From contig CBDANB010000007.1 of assembly GCA_965197395.1 (NCBI GenBank), positions 1,222,986-1,286,985 on the forward strand: a stretch of DNA of 64,000 nucleotides, given 5' to 3'. A program made the position numbers and the translations under genes. The notes beneath the pieces were generated by a model. The model saw only the letters and a program-made list of their open reading frames with translations, was not told the DNA's origin and did not search any database. Shown here piece by piece: positions 5,789-64,000 of the stretch; within the stretch, counting starts at the first letter, position 1, and the number at the start of each line of letters is the position of its first letter. Source of the stretch: Vicinamibacterales bacterium. GTDB lineage: Bacteria; Acidobacteriota; Vicinamibacteria; Vicinamibacterales; UBA8438.

Positions 5789-7323
5789 TGCCGCCGAACG
5801 CGGCGCCCGACGAGTGGACCGTCGCGACGATTCGCGCCGCGGTGGCCAGCGGCGACCGCTCGGCCGTCGACGTGTGCCAGACCTACCTCGACTGGATCGC
5901 CGAGGCTGACGGATACCTGAACGCCATGACCCTGGTGCTCCGAGACGAAGCCCTTGCTCGGGCCGCCGAGGTCGACGCGCGCCGTGCCGAATGGCGCGAT
6001 CGACCACTGCTCGGGGTCCCCATCACGATCAAGGACGTCATCTGCACGCGCGGTCACCCAACGACGGCCGCGTCGCGCATGCTCGAGGGGTTCCGGCCGC
6101 CATACGACGCGACGGTCGTTGCGCGCCTACGCGCGGCGGGCGCCATCGTGATCGGTAAGACCAACTGCGACGAGTTCGCGATGGGGTCGTCCACCGAGCA
6201 TTCGGCCTACGGGCCCACCCGCAACCCGTGGGCACCGAGCCGCACGCCAGGTGGGTCGAGCGGCGGGGCAGCCGCTGCGGTCGCGGCCCGGTTTGCGCCG
6301 GCCTCGATCGCCTCCGATACCGGCGGCTCGATCCGCCAACCCGCAGCGTTTTGCGGCGTCGTCGGTCTCAAGCCGACCTATGGTCGCGTCTCCCGCTACG
6401 GCCTCCTCGCCTTTGGATCGTCGCTCGATCAGATTGGCCCGATCACGCTGACGGTCGCCGATGCGGCGACCGTCTTCGAGGCGATCGCGGGTGCCGATCC
6501 CTGCGACGCGACGTCTGTCGATACGCCTGTCGCCCCCGTCGACGCCAACCTGACGCGTGGGACCGCCGGCACGCGTATCGGGGTGCCGCGCGCCGTCCTC
6601 GATGCGAGTGACGCGTGTCTCGATGCACACGTGCGGCAGTCGTTCGAGTCGGCGCTCGGCAGGCTGGCGGAGCTCGGCGCGGACGTGGTCGACATCGAGC
6701 TTCCGCACGCCGGATATGCCGTGCCGGTCTACTACCTGGTCGCGCCAGCCGAAGCGAGCGCCAACCTCGCCCGATACGACGGCGTGCGATTCGGTTTCCG
6801 CGCGGCGCCGGCCGAACCGGACAGCCTGCCGACGGCCTCGCTGGCGGGCATGTATGACCGGACGCGACACGCGGGATTCGGCGCCGAGGTGAAGCGGAGA
6901 ATCATGCTCGGCACCTACGCGTTGAGCGCCGGGTACTACGACGCGTACTACCGAAAAGCCCAGCAGGTGCGAAGCCTGATCCGCCGTGACTACGACGTCG
7001 CGTTCGCCGACCAGGGCGTCGACGTCGTCGCCATCCCGACGACCCCGTCGCCGGCGTTCGCCCTCGGTGAGCGCACGGACGACCCGCTCTCGATGTATCT
7101 CGGCGATGTCTTCACCGTGAGCGCCAACCTGACCGGGCTACCCGCGATCAGCCTGCCGGCTGGCCTGACGGCGGACGGGCTCCCGACGGGGTTCCAGCTG
7201 ATCGGCCGCCCATTCGACGAGTCGATGCTCTTCCGACTCGGCGGAGCGCTCGAGCGTGCGGCGCCATGGTGGCGCGAACGACCGTCCGTGGCGGGATTCG
7301 GGGGCGAAGACCCCGTCTCGTGA
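5788..7323 (+). CDS. gatA: Asp-tRNA(Asn)/Glu-tRNA(Gln) amidotransferase subunit A (amidase signature)
   Basis: The track ORF starts at the TTG at 5785. The ATG at 5788 overlaps the gatC stop (TGATG). The amidase signature [12 protein letters not shown]...[11 protein letters not shown] is present. Confidence 0.93.
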
Positions 7324-7334
7324 GAAGCCCGTGG

Positions 7335-7661
7335 CTAGGCGGCCGCGGCGGGGCGGAAGAGCACGGCGAAGACTCCCCACACGACGGCGGCGAGCAGCAG
7401 CAACGGAAGCAATGGAAGGACGACGGTGACGGCCAGCGCGACGAGACCCGCGGCCGCAACAAGGGGAACGATGGCGACGCCAACGAGGCCGCCGAACACG
7501 GCCTTGACCAGCAGCAACGGCAAGAGCAGCATCCAGCCGATGAGTCGGAGCGGCAACAGGACGAGCCAGACCAAAGCTTTCAGGACCATCAGCATCGTGA
7601 CCACCATTCCGGCGACCACGAGTCCGGCGACGAGGAGCGCGATGAGGGCAACAATCTCCAT
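7335..7661 (-). CDS. highly hydrophobic small membrane protein, unknown function
   Basis: 108 aa, almost entirely L/V/A TM segments. GC3 is high across the ORF. Confidence 0.5.
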   Translation of the reverse strand: MEIVALIALLVAGLVVAGMVVTMLMVLKALVWLVLLPLRLIGWMLLLPLLLVKAVFGGLVGVAIVPLVAAAGLVALAVTVVLPLLPLLLLAAVVWGVFAVLFRPAAAA

Positions 7662-45653: not shown

Positions 45654-47090
45654 ATGAAGACGAGACGATGGCTTGGCCGCTTGGCGGCCGTTGCCTGCAT
45701 CAGCCTGCTGGGATCCCCCGCGGCCGCCCAGTCTGACGACACTCGCCCGGCCGGATCGACGTTTCTCGGCGACACCGGATTGTGGTTCGTGCCCACCGCC
45801 GAGATCGTCGGCCACGGGCGGGTCGCAGCCAGCGCGCACCTCGCAACGTTCAATCGCGAGCAGGGGTTCACGGCGGTCCAGTCCGCTGCGGCGACGTTCG
45901 CGGTAGGGCTACGCGACCGGGTCGAGGTGTTCGGGTCGTTTCAGTTCCTGACGCGCATCGACCGCGATCTTCGGCCGATTTTTCAGCCGAACCAGATTGG
46001 CGTCGGCGGGCTCGTGACGGGCTATCCGCTGGTCACGAACGCCTTCAGCGGGAACGAGATCGGCGATTTCGTCGTCGGCGCGAAGATCAACCTCCTGTCC
46101 GAGCGCACCCGCGCGCCCTACGCGATGGCGATCCGAGGCTTCGTCAAGCTCCCAACTGGCAATGAGGCGGCGGGAACGACGACCGGTCAGACCGACGGCG
46201 GCATCGGTTTCGTCATGAGCAAGGCCTTCGCCGGTGCCGAGCTGGCAGGGCACTACGATTTCATCTTTCGGAGCGATCCGTCGACGATCAATCTCCCCCA
46301 CAGCCTGCGCTGGGGCGTCGGGGTCGGGGCGCCGGTCCGCGGGCGGGTTCGATTCTTCGGGGAACTGCTCGGCGAACGGCCGCTAAGCGCGATCACACTG
46401 ACTCAGTCCCTGGTCGGCGCCGACGGAAGCCTGTCGACCCTCGGCTCGCTCCAAAGCAGCCCACTCGATGTCATCCTCGGGCTCCAATGGAACGGTCCAC
46501 GGGGTGTCGCGCTGGGCGGCGGGATGAGCTGGGCGACACGGCACGAATCGCGGTCGCTGGTCGGCCAGTCGACGCCATCCGGCGACCGGTTCGGACTGCT
46601 CGTTCGACTAACCTATCACCCGGGCGTGAGCGTGTACGTGGCGCCACCGCCACCGCCGCCACCGGCACCGCCACCGCCACCGCCACCGCCACCGCCGCGC
46701 CGACCGCCACCGCCGCCGCCGCCAGCTGCGCCGGCGCCGGACCCGCCGCGCGAGTACGTCTTCGAGGACGTGCACTTCGACTTCGATCGCTACAGCTTGC
46801 GACCGGGCGCGGCGCGCGTGCTCGACGAGGTCGTGGCGGCGCTGCAGGATGACTCCGACCTCACCATCGAGATCGAGGGTCACACGTGCAACATCGGCAC
46901 GAACGAGTACAACGTGGCGCTCGGTGATCGGCGAGCGAACGCGGTTCAGCAGTATCTTGCGAGTCGCGGGGTCGGTGGCAACCGTCTCCGAACCGTCAGC
47001 TACGGCGAAGAGCGGCCCGCGCACGACAACGCGCGCGAAGAGACACGGCGCCTGAACCGCCGTGCCGCGCTCGTCGTTCGCCTCCGGTAG
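45654..47090 (+). CDS. outer-membrane OmpA-family protein (beta-barrel-like N-domain, polyproline linker, OmpA_C peptidoglycan-binding domain)
   Basis: The internal ATG at 45654 gives the signal peptide MKTRRWLGRLAAVACISLLGSPAAAQ. The linker is APPPPPPPAPPPPPPPPPPRRPPPPPPP. The C-terminus has IEGHTCNIGTNEYNVALGDRRANAV...NRRAALV. Confidence 0.88.
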   Translation: MKTRRWLGRLAAVACISLLGSPAAAQSDDTRPAGSTFLGDTGLWFVPTAEIVGHGRVAASAHLATFNREQGFTAVQSAAATFAVGLRDRVEVFGSFQFLTRIDRDLRPIFQPNQIGVGGLVTGYPLVTNAFSGNEIGDFVVGAKINLLSERTRAPYAMAIRGFVKLPTGNEAAGTTTGQTDGGIGFVMSKAFAGAELAGHYDFIFRSDPSTINLPHSLRWGVGVGAPVRGRVRFFGELLGERPLSAITLTQSLVGADGSLSTLGSLQSSPLDVILGLQWNGPRGVALGGGMSWATRHESRSLVGQSTPSGDRFGLLVRLTYHPGVSVYVAPPPPPPPAPPPPPPPPPPRRPPPPPPPAAPAPDPPREYVFEDVHFDFDRYSLRPGAARVLDEVVAALQDDSDLTIEIEGHTCNIGTNEYNVALGDRRANAVQQYLASRGVGGNRLRTVSYGEERPAHDNAREETRRLNRRAALVVRLR

Positions 47091-61389: not shown

Positions 61390-61404
61390 GCAACGGGCGT
61401 GCCA
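61390..61404 (-). promoter_or_regulatory. sigma-54 (-24/-12) promoter, exact consensus
   Basis: The minus strand reads TGGCAC-GCCCG-TTGCT, matching TGGCAC-N5-TTGCW. It lies about 82 nt upstream of the pilin ATG. Confidence 0.8.
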
Positions 61405-61508
61405 ACACGATCGACGAATCAAGCTATTTGTTAACTGACGTATATACAGATATTTACACGGTATCGTCTTCGCCTGGGCCGGTCCCCGTGGCCGGCCGAA
61501 TCGGACTA

Positions 61509-61525
61509 CTGACACTAATTGTCAG
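61509..61525. promoter_or_regulatory. inverted repeat CTGACA-N5-TGTCAG; candidate enhancer (PilR-type) binding site
   Basis: A perfect 6-bp inverted repeat containing TGTC half-sites, about 105-120 bp upstream of the -24 element. An AT-rich tract lies between them, including the IHF-like AATCAAGCTATTT at 61417-61429. Confidence 0.4.
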
Positions 61526-61645
61526 GTCCGCACGGCCAATAAGTGCCCGGGAGTGGCGTCTAGGGGGGATCGTGGAATACGTCGCGGGCGGCGCGAGGCT
61601 GCTGGCAAGGCCTCGCCGCCGCCTCGATTCACGCTTCGGTCACCG

Positions 61646-61905
61646 AAAAAAAAAGGGTCTATCCGGGTTTCCCAACGCTATTTTGGGGCCTTTCGGGATT
61701 TTTCTGGGTTTTCCGTGGATGATTTGATGGGAAAGGCCCTGTGGAAGCTCGTGGAAAACGCGCAGCGTTTTCCGAGGTGCGGTGGGCGCGTTCTGTGCGT
61801 CCACGGCGCCGGCAGCTTCCACAGGGCCCATCCGTATGCGACAAGATCGCCGCGTCCTCGGACTGCAGTCGACCCGTGAATGACTATGTTCACATCGAAG
61901 CGGCC
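61646..61905 (+). repeat. structured ~260-bp repeat, copy 1
   Basis: It starts with A9 and aligns with 63712-64000. Perfect stems:
- 61686-61694 / 61731-61739
- 61737-61749 / 61814-61826
- 61753-61761 / 61765-61773
- 61782-61789 / 61797-61804 (one G-T). Confidence 0.85.
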
Positions 61906-62057
61906 GACCTGTGCAGGCCGAACGCTCGATTTACCCAGGAAAGACAGGGATATCAGGTACTTACGCCCTTTGAGAAACTCGGATATCCCCCTGTGCCAAT
62001 AATCGGTGAGACAACCTTCCGAGTGAGATTAGTGTAGGGGCGGGGAGGGTTTGATGG

Positions 62058-62546
62058 ATGAATCGCATGCCACCAGCCGTGGAGATGGAGGCGGTCGTGG
62101 GGTCGAAGGCGGAGGGAGCCCGGCGGGCGACCGGAGCCTTCGGCCCCAACGCTACGTCAGCCGCGACGGCACCCGATCCTGAAGTGCGGGCGAAAGCCCA
62201 GCGCCGCCGGTTCACGGCGGCGTATCGGCTCCGCATTCTCAAGCAGGCGGACGCGTGCAAGCGGCCTGGCGAGCTGGGGGCGCTGCTGCGCCGAGAAGGC
62301 TTGTATAGCTCGCACTTGGCGAACTGGCGACGGCAGCGTGAGCAGGGCGCCCTGCGGGACATGCGGGGACGTCGGCGCGGCCCGACCCCACGTCCGATCG
62401 ACCCGCGTGTGAAGCAGTTGGAAGCCGAGAATCACAGGCTCGAGCGGAAGCTGCAGCGGGCCGAGACGATCATCGCCCTCCAAAAAAAAGTTGCCGAGAT
62501 CCTGGAGATCCCCCTGAAACCCCTCGACACCGACGAGACCGACTGA
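62058..62546 (+). CDS. IS3-family transposase OrfA (HTH + leucine-zipper region)
   Basis: 162 aa. RRRFTAAYRLRILKQAD...LLRREGLYSSHLANWRRQ and the C-terminal LEAENHRLERKLQRAETIIALQKKV are typical of IS3 OrfA. Confidence 0.88.
   Translation: MNRMPPAVEMEAVVGSKAEGARRATGAFGPNATSAATAPDPEVRAKAQRRRFTAAYRLRILKQADACKRPGELGALLRREGLYSSHLANWRRQREQGALRDMRGRRRGPTPRPIDPRVKQLEAENHRLERKLQRAETIIALQKKVAEILEIPLKPLDTDETD
62482..62489 (+). other. programmed -1 ribosomal frameshift slippery run (A8) of the IS3 element
   Basis: CAAAAAAAAG reads Q-K-K-V in the orfA frame. My manual translation shows the -1 frame is open from this run to the orfB ATG (KKSCRDPGDPETPRHRRDRLM...). Confidence 0.7.
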
Positions 62547-63664
62547 TGCGCGCGATCGAGGCCGTCACGGCGACGGGCGAGACGTCGGCGTTGTGTCAGA
62601 GCATCGGCGTGTCCCGCGCGTCGCTCTATCGGCGGCGCCGGCCCACGCCGCCGCCGCCGCCCCGGCGGCCCCGCGCGCCGTCGCCGCGCGCGCTGGTCGC
62701 TGCCGAACGGCGAGCCGTCCGCGACATGTTGCACAGCGCGCGGTTTGTCGATCAATCGCCCGCCGAAGTCTATGCGACGTTGCTTGAGGAGCAGACCTAC
62801 CTCTGCTCCCCGCGCACGATGTATCGGGTGCTCGCCGCGGCCGACGAAGTGCGGGAGCGCCGCGACCAGGTGCGGCATCCGGCATACGTCAAACCCGAGC
62901 TCGTCGCGACGGCGCCCAATCAGGTCTGGTCCTGGGACATCACCAAGCTGAAAGGCCCGGTCCCGTATCTCTACTACTCGCTCTACGTCATCCTCGACCT
63001 CTTCAGCCGCTACGTCGTGGGCTGGATGGTGGCGCGCCACGAGAATGCGCACTTGGCCGAGCGCTTGATCGAGCAGACCTGCGCAAAGCAGTGCATCGGG
63101 CCGCAGCAGCTCACGATTCACGCCGACCGCGGCGCGCCCATGCGCAGCAAGCTCGTCGCGCTGTTGTTCTCCGACCTCGGCATCGCGGCCAGCCACGCGC
63201 GGCCGCGCGTGAGCAATGACAATCCGTTCTCCGAGGCGCAGTTTCGCACCTTCAAGTATCGGCCGGAGTTTCCGAAGCGGTTCGGCGCACTCGAACACGC
63301 GCGCGCCCTCTGCCACGACCTCTTGGCTTGGTACAATGACGCCCACCACCACAGCGGCCTCAGCTATCTCACGCCGGCCGACGTGCATTACGGCCGCGCG
63401 TCGGCGACTCTCGACCGGCGTCACCGCACCCGCCTCGCGGCCTACGCCGCGCATCCGGAGCGATTCGTCAGCGGGCCACCACGCCCAGAAACCTTGCCGA
63501 CCGCCGTATGGATCAATCCGCCGTCGATAACGACCCGCCAGGATGCCCCAGGACCGACGACCGGCACCCCCAACGACTCGCAGCATGCGGTCGTTGCCCG
63601 GCCGCCACCGCCGTTCGATCGGTCGTCGTTGCACCGCGTCGATGGCGTGGAGTCGCTACAGTAA
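62546..63664 (+). CDS. IS3-family transposase OrfB (DDE/rve integrase core)
   Basis: 372 aa. The DDE motifs are WSWDITKL, IHADRGAPM and SNDNPFSEAQFRTFKY. HSGLSYLTPADVHYG is typical. Confidence 0.9.
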   Translation: MRAIEAVTATGETSALCQSIGVSRASLYRRRRPTPPPPPRRPRAPSPRALVAAERRAVRDMLHSARFVDQSPAEVYATLLEEQTYLCSPRTMYRVLAAADEVRERRDQVRHPAYVKPELVATAPNQVWSWDITKLKGPVPYLYYSLYVILDLFSRYVVGWMVARHENAHLAERLIEQTCAKQCIGPQQLTIHADRGAPMRSKLVALLFSDLGIAASHARPRVSNDNPFSEAQFRTFKYRPEFPKRFGALEHARALCHDLLAWYNDAHHHSGLSYLTPADVHYGRASATLDRRHRTRLAAYAAHPERFVSGPPRPETLPTAVWINPPSITTRQDAPGPTTGTPNDSQHAVVARPPPPFDRSSLHRVDGVESLQ

Positions 63665-63711
63665 ATGCTGAACCAGGTTGTCTCAAAGACGTTGACACGG
63701 CCCGTATAGCC

Positions 63712-64000
63712 AAAAAAAAGGGTCTATCCGGGTTTCCCAACGCCATTTTGGGGCCTTTCGGGGTTTTTCGTGGGTGATTTGATTGGAAAGGCCCTGTGGG
63801 AGCTCGTGGAAAACGCACAGCGTTTTCCAAGGCACGGTGGGCGCGTTCTGTGCGTCCACGGCGCCGTCAGCTTCCACAGGGCCCGTCCGTGCGCGACAAG
63901 ATGGCTCCCAGGGAGGGGGCCCATGCGTGATGTCGAACTGGACCGCTGCGTCCTCGGACTGCAGTCGACCGGCGAACAACTATGTTCGCGTCAACACCGT
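63712..64000 (+). repeat. structured repeat, copy 2 (runs to the window end)
   Basis: It starts with A8, 26 bp after the IS right end, in the same orientation as copy 1. It lacks a 10-nt loop segment and carries an extra ~45 nt (about 63903-63947) relative to copy 1. Confidence 0.85.

Follow-up and report, generated by a model that had tools for sequence, protein, structure and literature searches.

A repeat in the 64-kb stretch of DNA that we analysed at full length (the window) is an ISL3-type non-autonomous transposon (MITE), present as two side-by-side copies, and it carries a three-way-junction module that is common to at least nine unrelated kinds of mobile element. At least four plasmid lineages have diverged copies of the module, which adjoin AT-rich repeats, iterons and a rep gene, and the best-conserved 9-mer of the module matches the DnaA-box consensus. 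Because the fold is common to mobile elements and a plasmid replication origin, the module is a candidate DnaA recruiter. From comparison of sequences we tentatively suggest that it may be a site for DnaA-dependent unwinding or helicase loading that derives from an origin and has been captured by mobile elements.

Tandem MITEs in a pilin-gene terminator

The features of the repeat are listed in Table 1. We are highly confident of its overall anatomy, tandem MITEs of which one is split by an IS. When rejoined across the inserted IS, MITE copy 1 measures 336 bp, its last four bases (AGCC, 63708-11) lying on the far side of the IS. Its left inverted repeat, GGGTCTATCCGGGTTTCCCAAC at 61655-76, is 22 nt long and identical to the ends of autonomous ISL3 elements (L005, L007); the right inverted repeat starts at ~61969. 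The left repeat and the right tip, ..CGGATATAGCC, are identical to the two ends of L007, whose gene matches the NCBIfam ISL3 model with 286.5 bits (cut-off 180). Joined to 63708-11, copy 1 ends in ..CTCGGATATAGCC, exactly as do L013, L042 and L083, and all five MITE copies (these three and the two in the window) have identical tips and differing flanks. The MITEs are 336-375 bp in size and contain no transposase gene. The 8-bp AT-rich target duplication typical of ISL3 is present as A8 on both sides of copy 1 (61647-54, 63712-19); AT-rich sequence also forms the left flank of the other copies, and no clean duplication is seen at L013, L042 and L083. In each MITE, a three-way junction of ~95 nt lies ~80 nt inside the left inverted repeat, with an A-rich GATGA flank before it. 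Copy 2 runs into the window edge, and its right-hand junction lies beyond the window end.

Table 1 Features of the repeat and of the element that splits it, in window coordinates
Feature	Position	Strand	Basis or detail
A8 target-site duplication, left of MITE copy 1	61647..61654	.	within A9 run 61646-54
MITE copy 1, left 332 bp	61655..61986	+	ISL3-type inverted repeats
Helix 1	61685-94 / 61730-39		GGGGCCTTTC pairs with GGAAAGGCCC
Three-way-junction module, copy 1	61735..61828	+	P1 61735-49/61814-28, P2 61751-75, P3 61776-61810
Helix 2	61735-49 / 61814-28		GGCCCTGTGGAAGCT pairs with AGCTTCCACAGGGCC
Helix 3	61753-73		GGAAAACGC-GCA-GCGTTTTCC
Helix 4	61782-61804		GTGGGCGC-GTTCTGT-GCGTCCAC
Candidate DnaA boxes, module copy 1	61750-58; 61815-23		CGTGGAAAA; GCTTCCACA; box scoring
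TAT, left copy of 3-bp IS3 target duplication	61984..61986	.	TAT again at 63705-07
IS3-family IS, 1718 bp, splitting MITE copy 1	61987..63704	+	ORFs, NCBIfam, TAT duplication
TAT (right IS3 target duplication) and AGCC (last four bases of MITE copy 1)	63705..63711	+	TAT 63705-07, AGCC 63708-11
A8 target-site duplication common to copy 1 right end and copy 2 left end	63712..63719	.	
MITE copy 2, ended by window edge	63720..64000	+	junction 63790-63883
Three-way-junction module, copy 2	63790..63883	+	covariance model

In a related strain (L003) the insertion site is empty: a hairpin, GGGGATGCCCGCGCGGGCATCCCC, is followed by T9 and then by cggtgaccg, and the terminator is uninterrupted. In the window, the flank cggtcaccg precedes the A-run, matching the empty-site flank of L003, and the A9 run at 61646-54 corresponds, on the - strand, to the T9 of the pilin-gene terminator. 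The MITE entered the T-run of this terminator twice, in tandem. Because the MITEs inserted into the T-run, the A-run is target duplication and not part of the element.

A first-pass annotation had described the repeat as a unit of ~260 bp at 61646-61905 that begins with the A-run, with a second copy at 63712-64000. The helices and the second copy are there, but the bounds have shifted: the element occupies 61655-61986 plus 63708-11, the A-run is the pilin terminator T9 known from L003, duplicated as the 8-bp target site, and copy 2 begins at 63720. The lower GC that it noted is borne out (0.57 versus 0.68 for the window). Its roughly one dozen substitutions and single 10-nt indel become, on counting, 20 substitutions and two indels (10 and 41 nt), the copies being 92% identical over aligned bases (218/238); because of the indels, the ORFs differ between the two copies. 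It had also proposed a novel mobile element. The repeat is mobile, but of a known kind, an ISL3-derived MITE with inverted repeats, 8-bp AT-rich duplications and no transposase.

The element that splits copy 1 has the features of the IS3 family: orfA (62058-62546) and orfB (62546-63664), an A8 slippery run (62482-89), an rve-type DDE domain, a 3-bp duplication, and an NCBIfam IS3 match of 164.6 bits against a cut-off of 160. Excising 61987-63707 recreates the MITE tip of L013, L042 and L083, and the insertion is later than that of MITE copy 1. Identical copies of the IS in other contexts (L001, L002) have no MITE alongside, which rules out that the IS3 element and the repeat are a single unit. 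We also considered the 5' domains of a group II intron, since L001 has an RT/maturase gene after this IS; the intron there starts with GTGCG and has no sequence relation to the repeat.

Overall, the window MITEs resemble other ISL3-derived MITEs in having terminal inverted repeats that fit both tips of autonomous ISL3 elements, the 8-bp AT-rich duplication, no transposase, several differing flanks and an empty site in a relative. They differ in bearing a conserved structured module that is not specific to ISL3: Halieaceae ISL3 elements have the identical 22-nt repeat but lack the module.

A three-way junction common to mobile elements and plasmids

All four helices listed by the first-pass annotation were found in the sequence. 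The first of them (GGGCCTTTC/GAAAGGCCC) is not part of the common module but specific to this MITE family, and it competes with the base of P1. The covariance model matches copy 1 at 61724-61840 (98.3 bits) and copy 2 at 63779-63895 (99.6 bits), both on the + strand. Compared with shuffles, the 104-nt core has z = -8.5 (+ strand) and -7.9 (- strand) when folded as RNA, and -8.1 and -6.7, respectively, when folded as DNA. Six differences between the two copies fall inside the junction, three of them in helices: A>G at 61745 turns A-U into G.U, T>C at 61778 turns U.G into C-G, and G>A at 61779 breaks a pair. The change at 61745 had been recognised correctly, though as the sole stem change. That substitutions spare the stems, as had been claimed, holds in a 104-sequence alignment, which carries the claim; the window pair alone proves little on this point.

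More than 120 metagenome contigs from soil and sediment contain the junction; they were gathered with an exact 21-mer in P3, so that the conservation of P3 is overstated. The fold is almost certainly real. The folding and covariation check that the earlier annotation had called for, run on the 104-sequence alignment, gave 98% of cells paired and compensatory change in 23 of 37 pairs, with a covariation score of 0.333 compared to 0.03-0.075 for slid controls; none of 500 shuffles was as good. In 24 sequences, P2 has changed from GTGG/CCA to GTGC/GCA, which keeps the pairing and loses the DnaA box. The + strand, which had been named as the RNA strand on which the G-U pair would be tolerated, folds better and scores 98-129 bits with the covariance model versus ~20 for the - strand. 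No ORF with the local codon bias had been noted in the element, and no reading frame is conserved across the 104 module copies: ORFs run through the fold in all three frames (24, 18 and 10 sequences), and 52 are without ATGA. Two further structures were tried and rejected. An extra helix GATGA/TCTTC pairs in only 45% of cells (TCTTC is the 3' flank of the fold in about half of the copies), and single-sequence folds predict no upstream hairpin consistently across all families.

The earlier failure to place the element in a known RNA family also stands: an Rfam covariance-model search of the whole window gave no match at the gathering threshold, and matches elsewhere at E<10 were at chance level. 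No paper containing the module sequence was found in a full-text literature search, and the module had no match among PLSDB plasmids and INPHARED phages. In IMG/VR, the exact 21-mer had no match and the 21 hits of a degenerate pattern were chance matches, not one of which the covariance model confirmed.

The carriers, named from Pfam and NCBIfam, are IS3, IS481, IS21, IS256, IS110, ISL3 and ISNCY elements (the last named to the level of ISNCY, of which IS1202 is a group) together with tyrosine- and serine-recombinase elements. Each element has one module, 45-200 nt inside one terminal repeat, and in every case the better-folding strand reads inward. This arrangement of one copy, near an end and inward-reading, extends across ~18 sublineages. 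In more than 10 loci, inverted-repeat pairs enclose the module together with the transposase gene. A recombinase gene lies directly downstream of the motif, in the motif's orientation, in 91 of 122 loci, and the remaining loci are mostly contig-end fragments or MITEs. With filters off, no second, weaker module was found at the other IS end. All nameable carrier families covered by a published list of circle-forming families are on that list (bioRxiv 10.1101/2023.06.07.543989); IS481 is not listed. Families usually classed as cut-and-paste were absent from the 91 classified loci. The neighbours of the module are transposase genes, and no integron cassette arrays were found.

On plasmids, the diverged modules score 31-46 bits (E-values 1e-6 to 3e-11), and all of them fold as the same junction; P3 is there a plain hairpin without box words, yet is always present. 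The plasmid family with the diverged module comes from the same habitats as the module-bearing elements. In L174, L181-184, L185 and L186, rep is preceded at a distance of 260-380 nt by a native diverged module that has no ISL3 repeat. In L031, the module is accompanied by an AT-rich stretch, four iterons, a 330-aa ORF and ParA. This ORF has no direct match in Pfam, NCBIfam, PHROGs or PDB sequences; only two distant homologues of it show Pfam RepA_C or RPA. TTTTCCACAGCCTGTGGAAAA occurs among the iterons of L187. In more distant rep homologues (45-55% identity) the module is absent.

DnaA-box features and possible roles of the module

A 9-mer spanning the P1/P2 junction matches TTWTNCACA, the general DnaA-box consensus, which we assume to hold for this lineage, at 9/9 positions in 27 of 101 sequences and at 8/9 in 53 of 101; in the background, such matches occur at a rate of 9e-5 per position. 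The module contains six TGTGG and TCCAC(A) words in three inverted pairs. Of the six box-like sites, a single one makes a good DnaA box; the remainder match at 5-7 of 9 positions. Between the strongest box, TGTGGRAAA (reverse complement TTTYCCACA), and A-centred triplets there are ~13 nt, which is the spacing of the DnaA-box/DnaA-trio unwinding unit, and a weak box lies 3-4 nt from the triplets, within the 16 bp expected between a DnaA box and the trios. The flank has the consensus NAA AAM GAT GAK, with A at the middle position in 46-68 of 101 sequences and a distal part that is simply A-rich. Its box-adjacent triplets read GAT 5'->3', not the preferred 3'-GAT-5'; two are clear, where such a unit would have at least three NAN triplets, and the rest of the flank is A-rich. 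Only L186, with (TAG)4-CCC-TGTGGGAAC, has a convincing trio pattern. The sequence thus places a candidate DnaA box within the stem of a one-strand fold, kept by compensatory change, as in an A-site-type signal.

If the module does serve replication, DnaA on its boxes would open the AT-rich stretch beside the element tip; alternatively, DnaA might bind the folded displaced strand, as with the ABC-primosome 'A-site' hairpin. By either route, DnaB would be loaded on the inward-running strand, which would be the lagging-strand template for a fork entering from the flank, and such a fork would be what the copy-out step in circle-forming IS families needs. In recombinase-type elements, the module might let the excised circle be copied. 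It is conceivable, though open to considerable doubt, that nine or more families in soil Acidobacteriota-like bacteria each captured the same foldable DnaA-box/DnaA-trio plasmid-origin module and placed it inside one end for copy-out or circle copying. Against copy-out, in the IS3-family element IS2 the fork would enter at the end opposite to the module-bearing end of the IS3 elements described here. We also know of no replication need for the movement of IS110, tyrosine- or serine-recombinase elements, all of which carry the module.

The iteron- and rep-adjacent diverged copies and the DnaA-box consensus in the arms make a DNA-level replication role likelier than a structured RNA. Of the structured RNA proposed by the first-pass annotation, the conserved single-strand fold with its compensatory changes therefore stays, while its action as RNA on the inward-reading strand is rather unlikely. 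Such an RNA could insulate against or process transcripts reading in from the flank, stabilise, as a 5' structure, an inward transcript (the transposase mRNA in elements with the gene downstream, an antisense RNA in those with a convergent gene) or be small RNA cargo. Strong covariation would suit it, as would the many G.U pairs that recur at fixed positions in each of the three arms, although ssDNA and RNA folds are indistinguishable by comparative analysis (PMC5737381). The + strand folds far better as RNA (in L124, -77 versus -55 kcal/mol for the - strand), transcription reading in from the flank would run inward as well, the fold has stop codons and a purine-rich box immediately on its 5' side, and structured RNAs have precedent in IS ends, for example in IS200 (PMC4513863). 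However, no U-tract directly follows the fold as in an intrinsic terminator, there was no terminator call in 61400-64000, and no sigma-70-like promoter was found upstream of the module in the window. Relative to the gene, the module is upstream in certain families but downstream and antisense in others, which does not suit any one regulatory logic. On plasmids, an AT-rich region and iterons separate it from rep, which is a DNA-level origin layout. The T in each ..TCCAC arm is invariant opposite G or A and almost never in a G-C pair, which points to sequence-specific reading rather than pairing alone. Finally, the module is retained in a MITE, where there is no transposase to regulate, and this fits a cis-acting DNA role.

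A site acting only as duplex DNA, an inverted array of DnaA boxes or other host-protein sites near one transposon end, is improbable. Transposition would then depend on how much DnaA is present or on the cell cycle, as with the DnaA site at the Tn5 outside end (PMC3347997), and the hairpin potential would be a by-product of inverted boxes. The three inverted pairs of box words are as it predicts, and the module sits where DnaA boxes sit in iteron plasmids. Yet covariation extends outside the boxes (P1 base, P2 interior, P3 base), the 24 sequences with altered P2 drop the box words in both arms together and retain pairing, and the plasmid P3 persists as a hairpin without them. It is more improbable still that the junction is a selfish REP/REPIN or IS200/IS605-derived hairpin, moved in trans by an HUH transposase and nested in the elements. 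P2 and P3 are indeed near-duplicate imperfect palindromes on one strand, inside a third of the same type; the semi-conserved GATGA at the 5' edge could be a target word, and the homology edges across families are fairly sharp. Against this, essentially all copies are in mobile elements or plasmid origins and none in ordinary intergenic DNA, as seen in the recombinase genes of most loci and in the window, whose only two copies are both in MITEs, with no solitary hairpins. The module is also always single, terminal and inward-reading, and the loci read showed no Y1/HUH transposase gene.

Relation to known systems

A close parallel to the replication role that we prefer is the ABC-primosome 'A site', a single-strand initiation signal formed by an ssDNA hairpin whose stem contains a DnaA box (Masai and Arai, via PMC6127211). 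Like the A site, the module is a one-strand fold with the DnaA-box consensus in a stem, is orientation-dependent and adjoins a plasmid origin, and it is proposed to have the same outcome, namely that DnaB is loaded on ssDNA in a DnaA-dependent way. The module differs in being a three-way junction with up to six box-like words instead of one hairpin with one box, in lying inside transposable elements and in being known from sequence alone. Bacterial origins have a basal unwinding system of tandem DnaA boxes and DnaA-trios at a set spacing (PMC8287927). The module resembles it in having a strong and a weak box in tandem, ~13 nt from the strong box to the A-centred triplets, the 3' end of the triplet strand toward the boxes and an AT-rich stretch beyond, and in the (TAG)4-CCC-box of L186. 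In contrast, most IS copies have only two clear triplets, GAT 5'->3' and not TAG; the boxes double as helix arms, which the unwinding system does not need; and the module is found at a plasmid origin or transposon end, not at oriC.

The Tn5/IS50 outside end contains a DnaA-binding site (PMC3347997) and is thus also a host initiator site at one end of a transposable element, but it is a single duplex box in a 19-bp end of a cut-and-paste element, without a fold and not shared across families. The sso of rolling-circle plasmids and integron attC sites are, like the module, non-coding strand- and orientation-specific ssDNA folds, conserved more in structure than in sequence, and cassettes that move between unrelated replicons of the same hosts. 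They differ in that sso is read by RNA polymerase and has conserved loops of its own, and each attC site is one hairpin, located in a cassette array that comes with an integrase; both contexts are absent here.

To our knowledge, how circle-forming IS recruit the replisome for copy-out has not been worked out. A module that is conserved, portable and fixed in orientation, and that has DnaA-box features next to the entry end, would offer a direct handle on this recruitment. If our reading is correct, this would be the first time that a cis-acting element for replication initiation is described in insertion sequences, and it would answer how copy-out replication starts. The module is also, whatever its role, a clear example of the exchange of one non-coding module between many unrelated families of mobile elements and a plasmid origin inside a single host group; as far as we know, such exchange is known for plasmid single-strand origins and not for IS elements. 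Should the module act as RNA instead, it would still be an undescribed, well-supported structured motif with more than 100 representatives. In annotation, its covariance model can be used to mark IS ends and plasmid origins in poorly studied soil lineages.

A probable tandem pair of ISL3-type MITEs at a pilin-gene terminator

The first-pass annotation described a hairpin-dense, lower-GC repeat of ~260 bp (61646-61905), beginning with an A-run and present in a second copy, as a candidate structured RNA or novel mobile or regulatory element. The helices it listed are present in the sequence, the GC fraction is 0.57, compared with 0.68 in the whole window, and the second copy aligns with the first over ~240 nt, with 218 identities and 20 mismatches among aligned bases and one segment private to each copy. 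The A-run, in contrast, is no part of the element. A related strain (L003, ENA ERZ25067264) has the same two pilin genes with neither repeat nor IS between them; there, the upstream pilin gene ends in a terminator hairpin, GGGGATGCCCGCGCGGGCATCCCC, followed by a T9 run and then cggtgaccgaagcg, and in the window the matching cggtcaccg adjoins an A9 run. The A-run is thus the T-run of the terminator and lies outside the repeat.

Directly after the A-run stands a 22-mer, GGGTCTATCCGGGTTTCCCAAC, found at 29 sites in species-representative genomes: ~20 in one Halieaceae MAG and the others in Desulfobacterales, Latescibacterota and two Vicinamibacterales MAGs, among others. Its flanks are AT-rich and different at each copy, and outside Vicinamibacterales the interior is unrelated. 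At one locus, L007, a 1.45-kb element begins on its left with the 22-mer; its opposite end reads ..CCGGATATAGCC, and its gene encodes an ISL3-family transposase (286.5 bits, cut-off 180). Three further loci (L013, L042 and L083) share the window sequence over 336-375 bp, ending ..CTCGGATATAGCC before unrelated flanks, and copy 1 reads ..CTCGGATAT at 61986, directly before an IS3-family element. Removing this IS and one TAT in silico restored the canonical MITE tip exactly; the boundaries of the IS derive from this reconstruction of the TAT duplication, unconfirmed by the loci L001 and L002 (also ENA sample ERZ25067264). These carry protein-identical copies of the IS with no repeat alongside, and the IS is independent of the repeat.

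The window therefore very probably holds a tandem pair of ISL3-type MITEs, copy 1 being split by an IS. Both MITEs entered the same A/T run, each with an 8-bp duplication, and the right inverted repeat of copy 1 was later invaded by the IS3-family IS. With its ISL3-type tips the repeat is indeed mobile, but it is no novel kind of element: the MITE itself is ordinary, and such elements are already known. The cross-phylum conservation of the tip is unusually strict, the 22 nt being identical in Halieaceae, other Gammaproteobacteria, Desulfobacterales, Latescibacterota and Vicinamibacterales around differing interiors.

Several other features were seen at these loci. The IS3-family IS has an A8 run within orfA and an ATGA overlap of the orfA stop and orfB start, and its L001 copy directly adjoins a group II intron and genes of ISL3 and IS110. 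Between its pilin genes, L003 carries a group II intron 5 nt past the hairpin CTGACAATTAGTGTCAG. Class C group II introns insert after terminator-like stem-loops, and the position matches that pattern. A sub-threshold Rfam 'Transposase-2' match on a GC-rich native intergenic hairpin is probably due to chance, since L003 has the same hairpin. Elsewhere, GCC/ACC-rich repeats may encode a Gly-rich repeat on the - strand.

Coordinates and scores of features in the window and in compared loci
Feature	Position	Details
GCC/ACC-rich repeats	46634-46747	9-12 nt, seven overlapping copies
Uninterrupted counterpart of L003 intron site	61503/61504	
'Transposase-2' match	61583-61637 (-)	15.6 bits, E=7
MITE copy 1	61655-61986, 63708-11	
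Segment in copy 1 only	61696-61705	10 nt
Junction, copy 1	61735-61828	94 nt
Helix change	61745	A>G, A-U to G.U
Helix change	61778	T>C, U.G to C-G
Helix change	61779	G>A, pair broken
IS3-family element	61987-63704	1718 bp; orfA + orfB; NCBIfam IS3, 164.6 bits
A8 run in orfA	62482-89	
orfA/orfB overlap	62543-46	
TAT AGCC	63705-11	between IS and A8
A8	63712-19	precedes MITE copy 2
MITE copy 2	63720-64000 (window end)	
Junction, copy 2	63790-63883	
Segment in copy 2 only	63903-63943	41 nt
Group II intron	L003 5525-7528	RT/maturase gene 6018-7346
Apparent group II intron 5' end	L121 337-460	
Inverted DnaA-box words	L187 ~2130-2160	
Plasmid origin	L031 1220-1400; L174 2750-2930	L181, L185, L186 likewise
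Native plasmid copy	L174	41.5 bits, E 9e-10
Native plasmid copy	L181-184	30.6 bits, E 1e-6
Native plasmid copy	L185	34.4 bits, E 6e-8
Native plasmid copy	L186	45.9 bits, E 3e-11
IS beside origin junction	L174 1-1556; L181-183 494-1747; L184 1-1213; L186 526-1869; L031 88-477	

A conserved three-way junction within the repeat

A 104-nt core of the repeat folds into one long helix enclosing two hairpins, with RNA folding z-scores of -8.5 (+ strand) and -7.9 (- strand), and similar values for DNA. The earlier claim that a single inter-copy change falls in a stem was too generous, since three of the six differences in the 94-nt junction lie within helices, and an argument from conservation cannot be carried by two copies. 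An exact 21-mer of the second hairpin, P3 (GGGCGCGTTCTGTGCGTCCAC), retrieved further copies on at least 120 JGI metagenome contigs, a set ascertained by that 21-mer, in which homology is restricted to ~120-170 nt. The taxonomic range of the module was read from two Vicinamibacterales MAGs and from GC content.

A MAFFT alignment of 97 distinct copies yielded a three-way junction, with P1 closing the P2 and P3 hairpins and double changes in 18 of 37 pairs. When 104 copies were aligned to a covariance model, 98% of cells were paired, bearing out the view that the stems resist substitution; compensatory changes occurred in 23 of the 37 pairs (417 cells), and none of 500 shuffles did as well. When the partners were shifted by 1-3 columns, pairing fell to 38-53%, and the covariation score, 0.333 in the true register, fell to 0.03-0.075. 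The copies in L090 (two) and L083, detected by the model alone without the 21-mer, vary in the P3 loop or stem and keep the pairing. Model scores were 98-129 bits on the + strand and ~20 on the - strand. All three arms share the form 5'-GTGG(G/A)...TCCA(C)-3', and one fixed arm position is G.U or A-U, almost never G-C. Protein coding was rejected, as ORFs crossing the fold fall in all three frames. The junction is almost certainly a selected fold. It appears to be undescribed: Rfam has no family matching the repeat or the module, a full-text literature search found no paper containing its sequence, and PLSDB, INPHARED and IMG/VR gave no match.

Some copies are altered. Three (L079, L088 and L097) retain both hairpins, P2 and P3, together with the P1 3' arm, and have unrelated sequence in place of the P1 5' arm (..CCGGTTCATCTTATC|TGTGGGAAAC..); they look decayed or rearranged. 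At L121, compared with L061, an apparent group II intron 5' end (GTGTGCCGAGCATG..) on the folding strand directly follows the P3 hairpin inside the junction and replaces the P1 3' arm, which suggests that another mobile element recognises P3 as a stem-loop, in DNA or in RNA.

The module in insertion sequences and at plasmid origins

In elements of the IS481, IS256, IS3, IS21 and ISNCY types, inverted-repeat pairs enclose the motif and a transposase gene, and within a class the flanks diverge just beyond these repeats. At 91 of 122 loci the motif is immediately followed, in its own orientation, by a transposase or recombinase gene; most others are contig-end fragments, MITEs or the plasmid contig L031. 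The gene is on the opposite strand to the motif in IS3 (18 loci), IS256 (14), ISNCY (8), IS481 (7) and 15 IS21 loci, and on the same strand in IS110 (9), ISL3 (8), IS481-like (3), tyrosine recombinase (2) and 7 IS21 loci, so that, depending on the family, the module lies either upstream of the gene or, in antisense, downstream of it. Two loci (L038 and L133) pair it with large serine recombinases. The module always lies 45-200 nt from the nearest element end, with the same strand reading inward, in one copy per element; none was found at the opposite end even with search filters off, and within the window the two MITE copies are the only ones. Published circle-forming families include IS3, IS21, IS256, IS110, ISL3 and IS1202, and every nameable carrier family covered by that list is on it (bioRxiv 10.1101/2023.06.07.543989); the IS1202 entry bears on the ISNCY carriers only if the ISNCY matches belong to the IS1202 group, and IS481 is absent. 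No family usually classed as cut-and-paste occurred among the classified loci.

L031, a contig of a Vicinamibacterales MAG, carries the ISL3 repeat and module and, after them, an AT-rich stretch containing (A/T)ACTG repeats, four iterons spaced 22-31 nt, a 330-aa ORF and a ParA gene. The ORF had no direct family match; two of its 100 homologues match Pfam RepA_C or RPA, and the homologues' contigs, several flagged circular, carry ParA/ParB and toxin-antitoxin genes. In four rep lineages a model search revealed diverged module copies that lack the ISL3 repeat and lie 260-380 nt upstream of rep, each with the same P1+P2+P3 fold and with ACTG repeats and iterons next. Import by a neighbouring IS was rejected, because the IS genes upstream differ per locus and neither their side nor their strand agrees with the carrier arrangement. 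These plasmid copies are likely homologous and native. L031 is a hybrid, following MITE sequence through the module and then switching to native ..CAGTTTCCACAG..GCTAATACTG. In more distant rep homologues the model search did not find the junction; in L187, one such homologue's locus, TTTTCCACAGCCTGTGGAAAA stands among the iterons.

In this plasmid family the Rep is unannotated and the origin distinctive: 4-5 (A/T)ACTG words, at ~10-11-nt spacing within the AT-rich stretch, precede four iterons of type GACTTTCGGGGGCTCATTCACG. L187, of the same Rep family, also carries two perfect inverted DnaA-box words, TTTTCCACA-GCC-TGTGGAAAA, among the iterons. IS21, IS256, rve-type and IS3 elements, differing among plasmids, lie directly upstream of the origin junction; this site is an insertion hot spot, from which an IS could have acquired the module.

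DnaA-box features and a possible role in replication

Across the P1/P2 junction the + strand reads TGTGG(G/A)AAA, the reverse complement of TTTYCCACA. Against TTWTNCACA, a general consensus that may not be the host's, this site matches at 9/9 in 27 of 101 and at 8/9 in 53 of 101, compared with a background rate in the window of 9e-5 per position; for the five other arm words the agreement is 5-7 of 9. The consensus immediately 5' of P1 is A-rich, then reads GATGA(K), or NAA AAM GAT GAK as triplets, from which the P1 5' arm (a weak box) is 3-4 nt and the strong box ~13 nt away. Further upstream, several families have a CT-rich, low-GC stretch, GTTCTTCGTTCTTC.., in common. The module shows the arrangement and spacing of the DnaA-box/DnaA-trio unwinding unit, in which the spacer peaks at 10-13 bp and the weaker box is nearer the trios (PMC8287927). 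The plasmid locus L186 has a clean version, (TAG)4-CCC-TGTGGGAAC-T-TGTGGAAAG. DnaA-trios read TAG, however, whereas most IS copies have two clear triplets only, reading GAT, and there the likeness is suggestive only.

In copy-out transposition, synthesis into the element starts from the 3'-OH that remains in the flank, and the displaced strand runs 5'->3' inward; DnaB must travel on that strand, in that direction. The strand and position of the module fit this geometry. DnaA might bind the module and open the AT-rich stretch that separates the boxes from the element tip, or might act on the folded displaced strand, as at the ABC primosome A-site, where DnaA bound to a hairpin with a box brings DnaB-DnaC to SSB-coated ssDNA (PMC6127211); either action would lead to DnaB loading on the inward-running strand. 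We put forward such a DnaA-dependent replication function tentatively, at somewhat below even chances. The single strong box among the module words does not fit it well, nor does carriage by IS110 and recombinase-type elements, which are not known to require replication. That the module acts as RNA instead we consider unlikely. Comparative methods cannot separate RNA from ssDNA folds (PMC5737381). Retention of the module in a MITE fits a cis-acting DNA role.

In concept, this putative replication signal comes closest to initiation signals of the A-site type, to the unwinding unit of boxes and trios, to the Tn5 end with its DnaA site (PMC3347997) and to the single-strand origins that rolling-circle plasmids carry like cassettes. 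What is new relative to these systems is a foldable, origin-like module common to many IS families.
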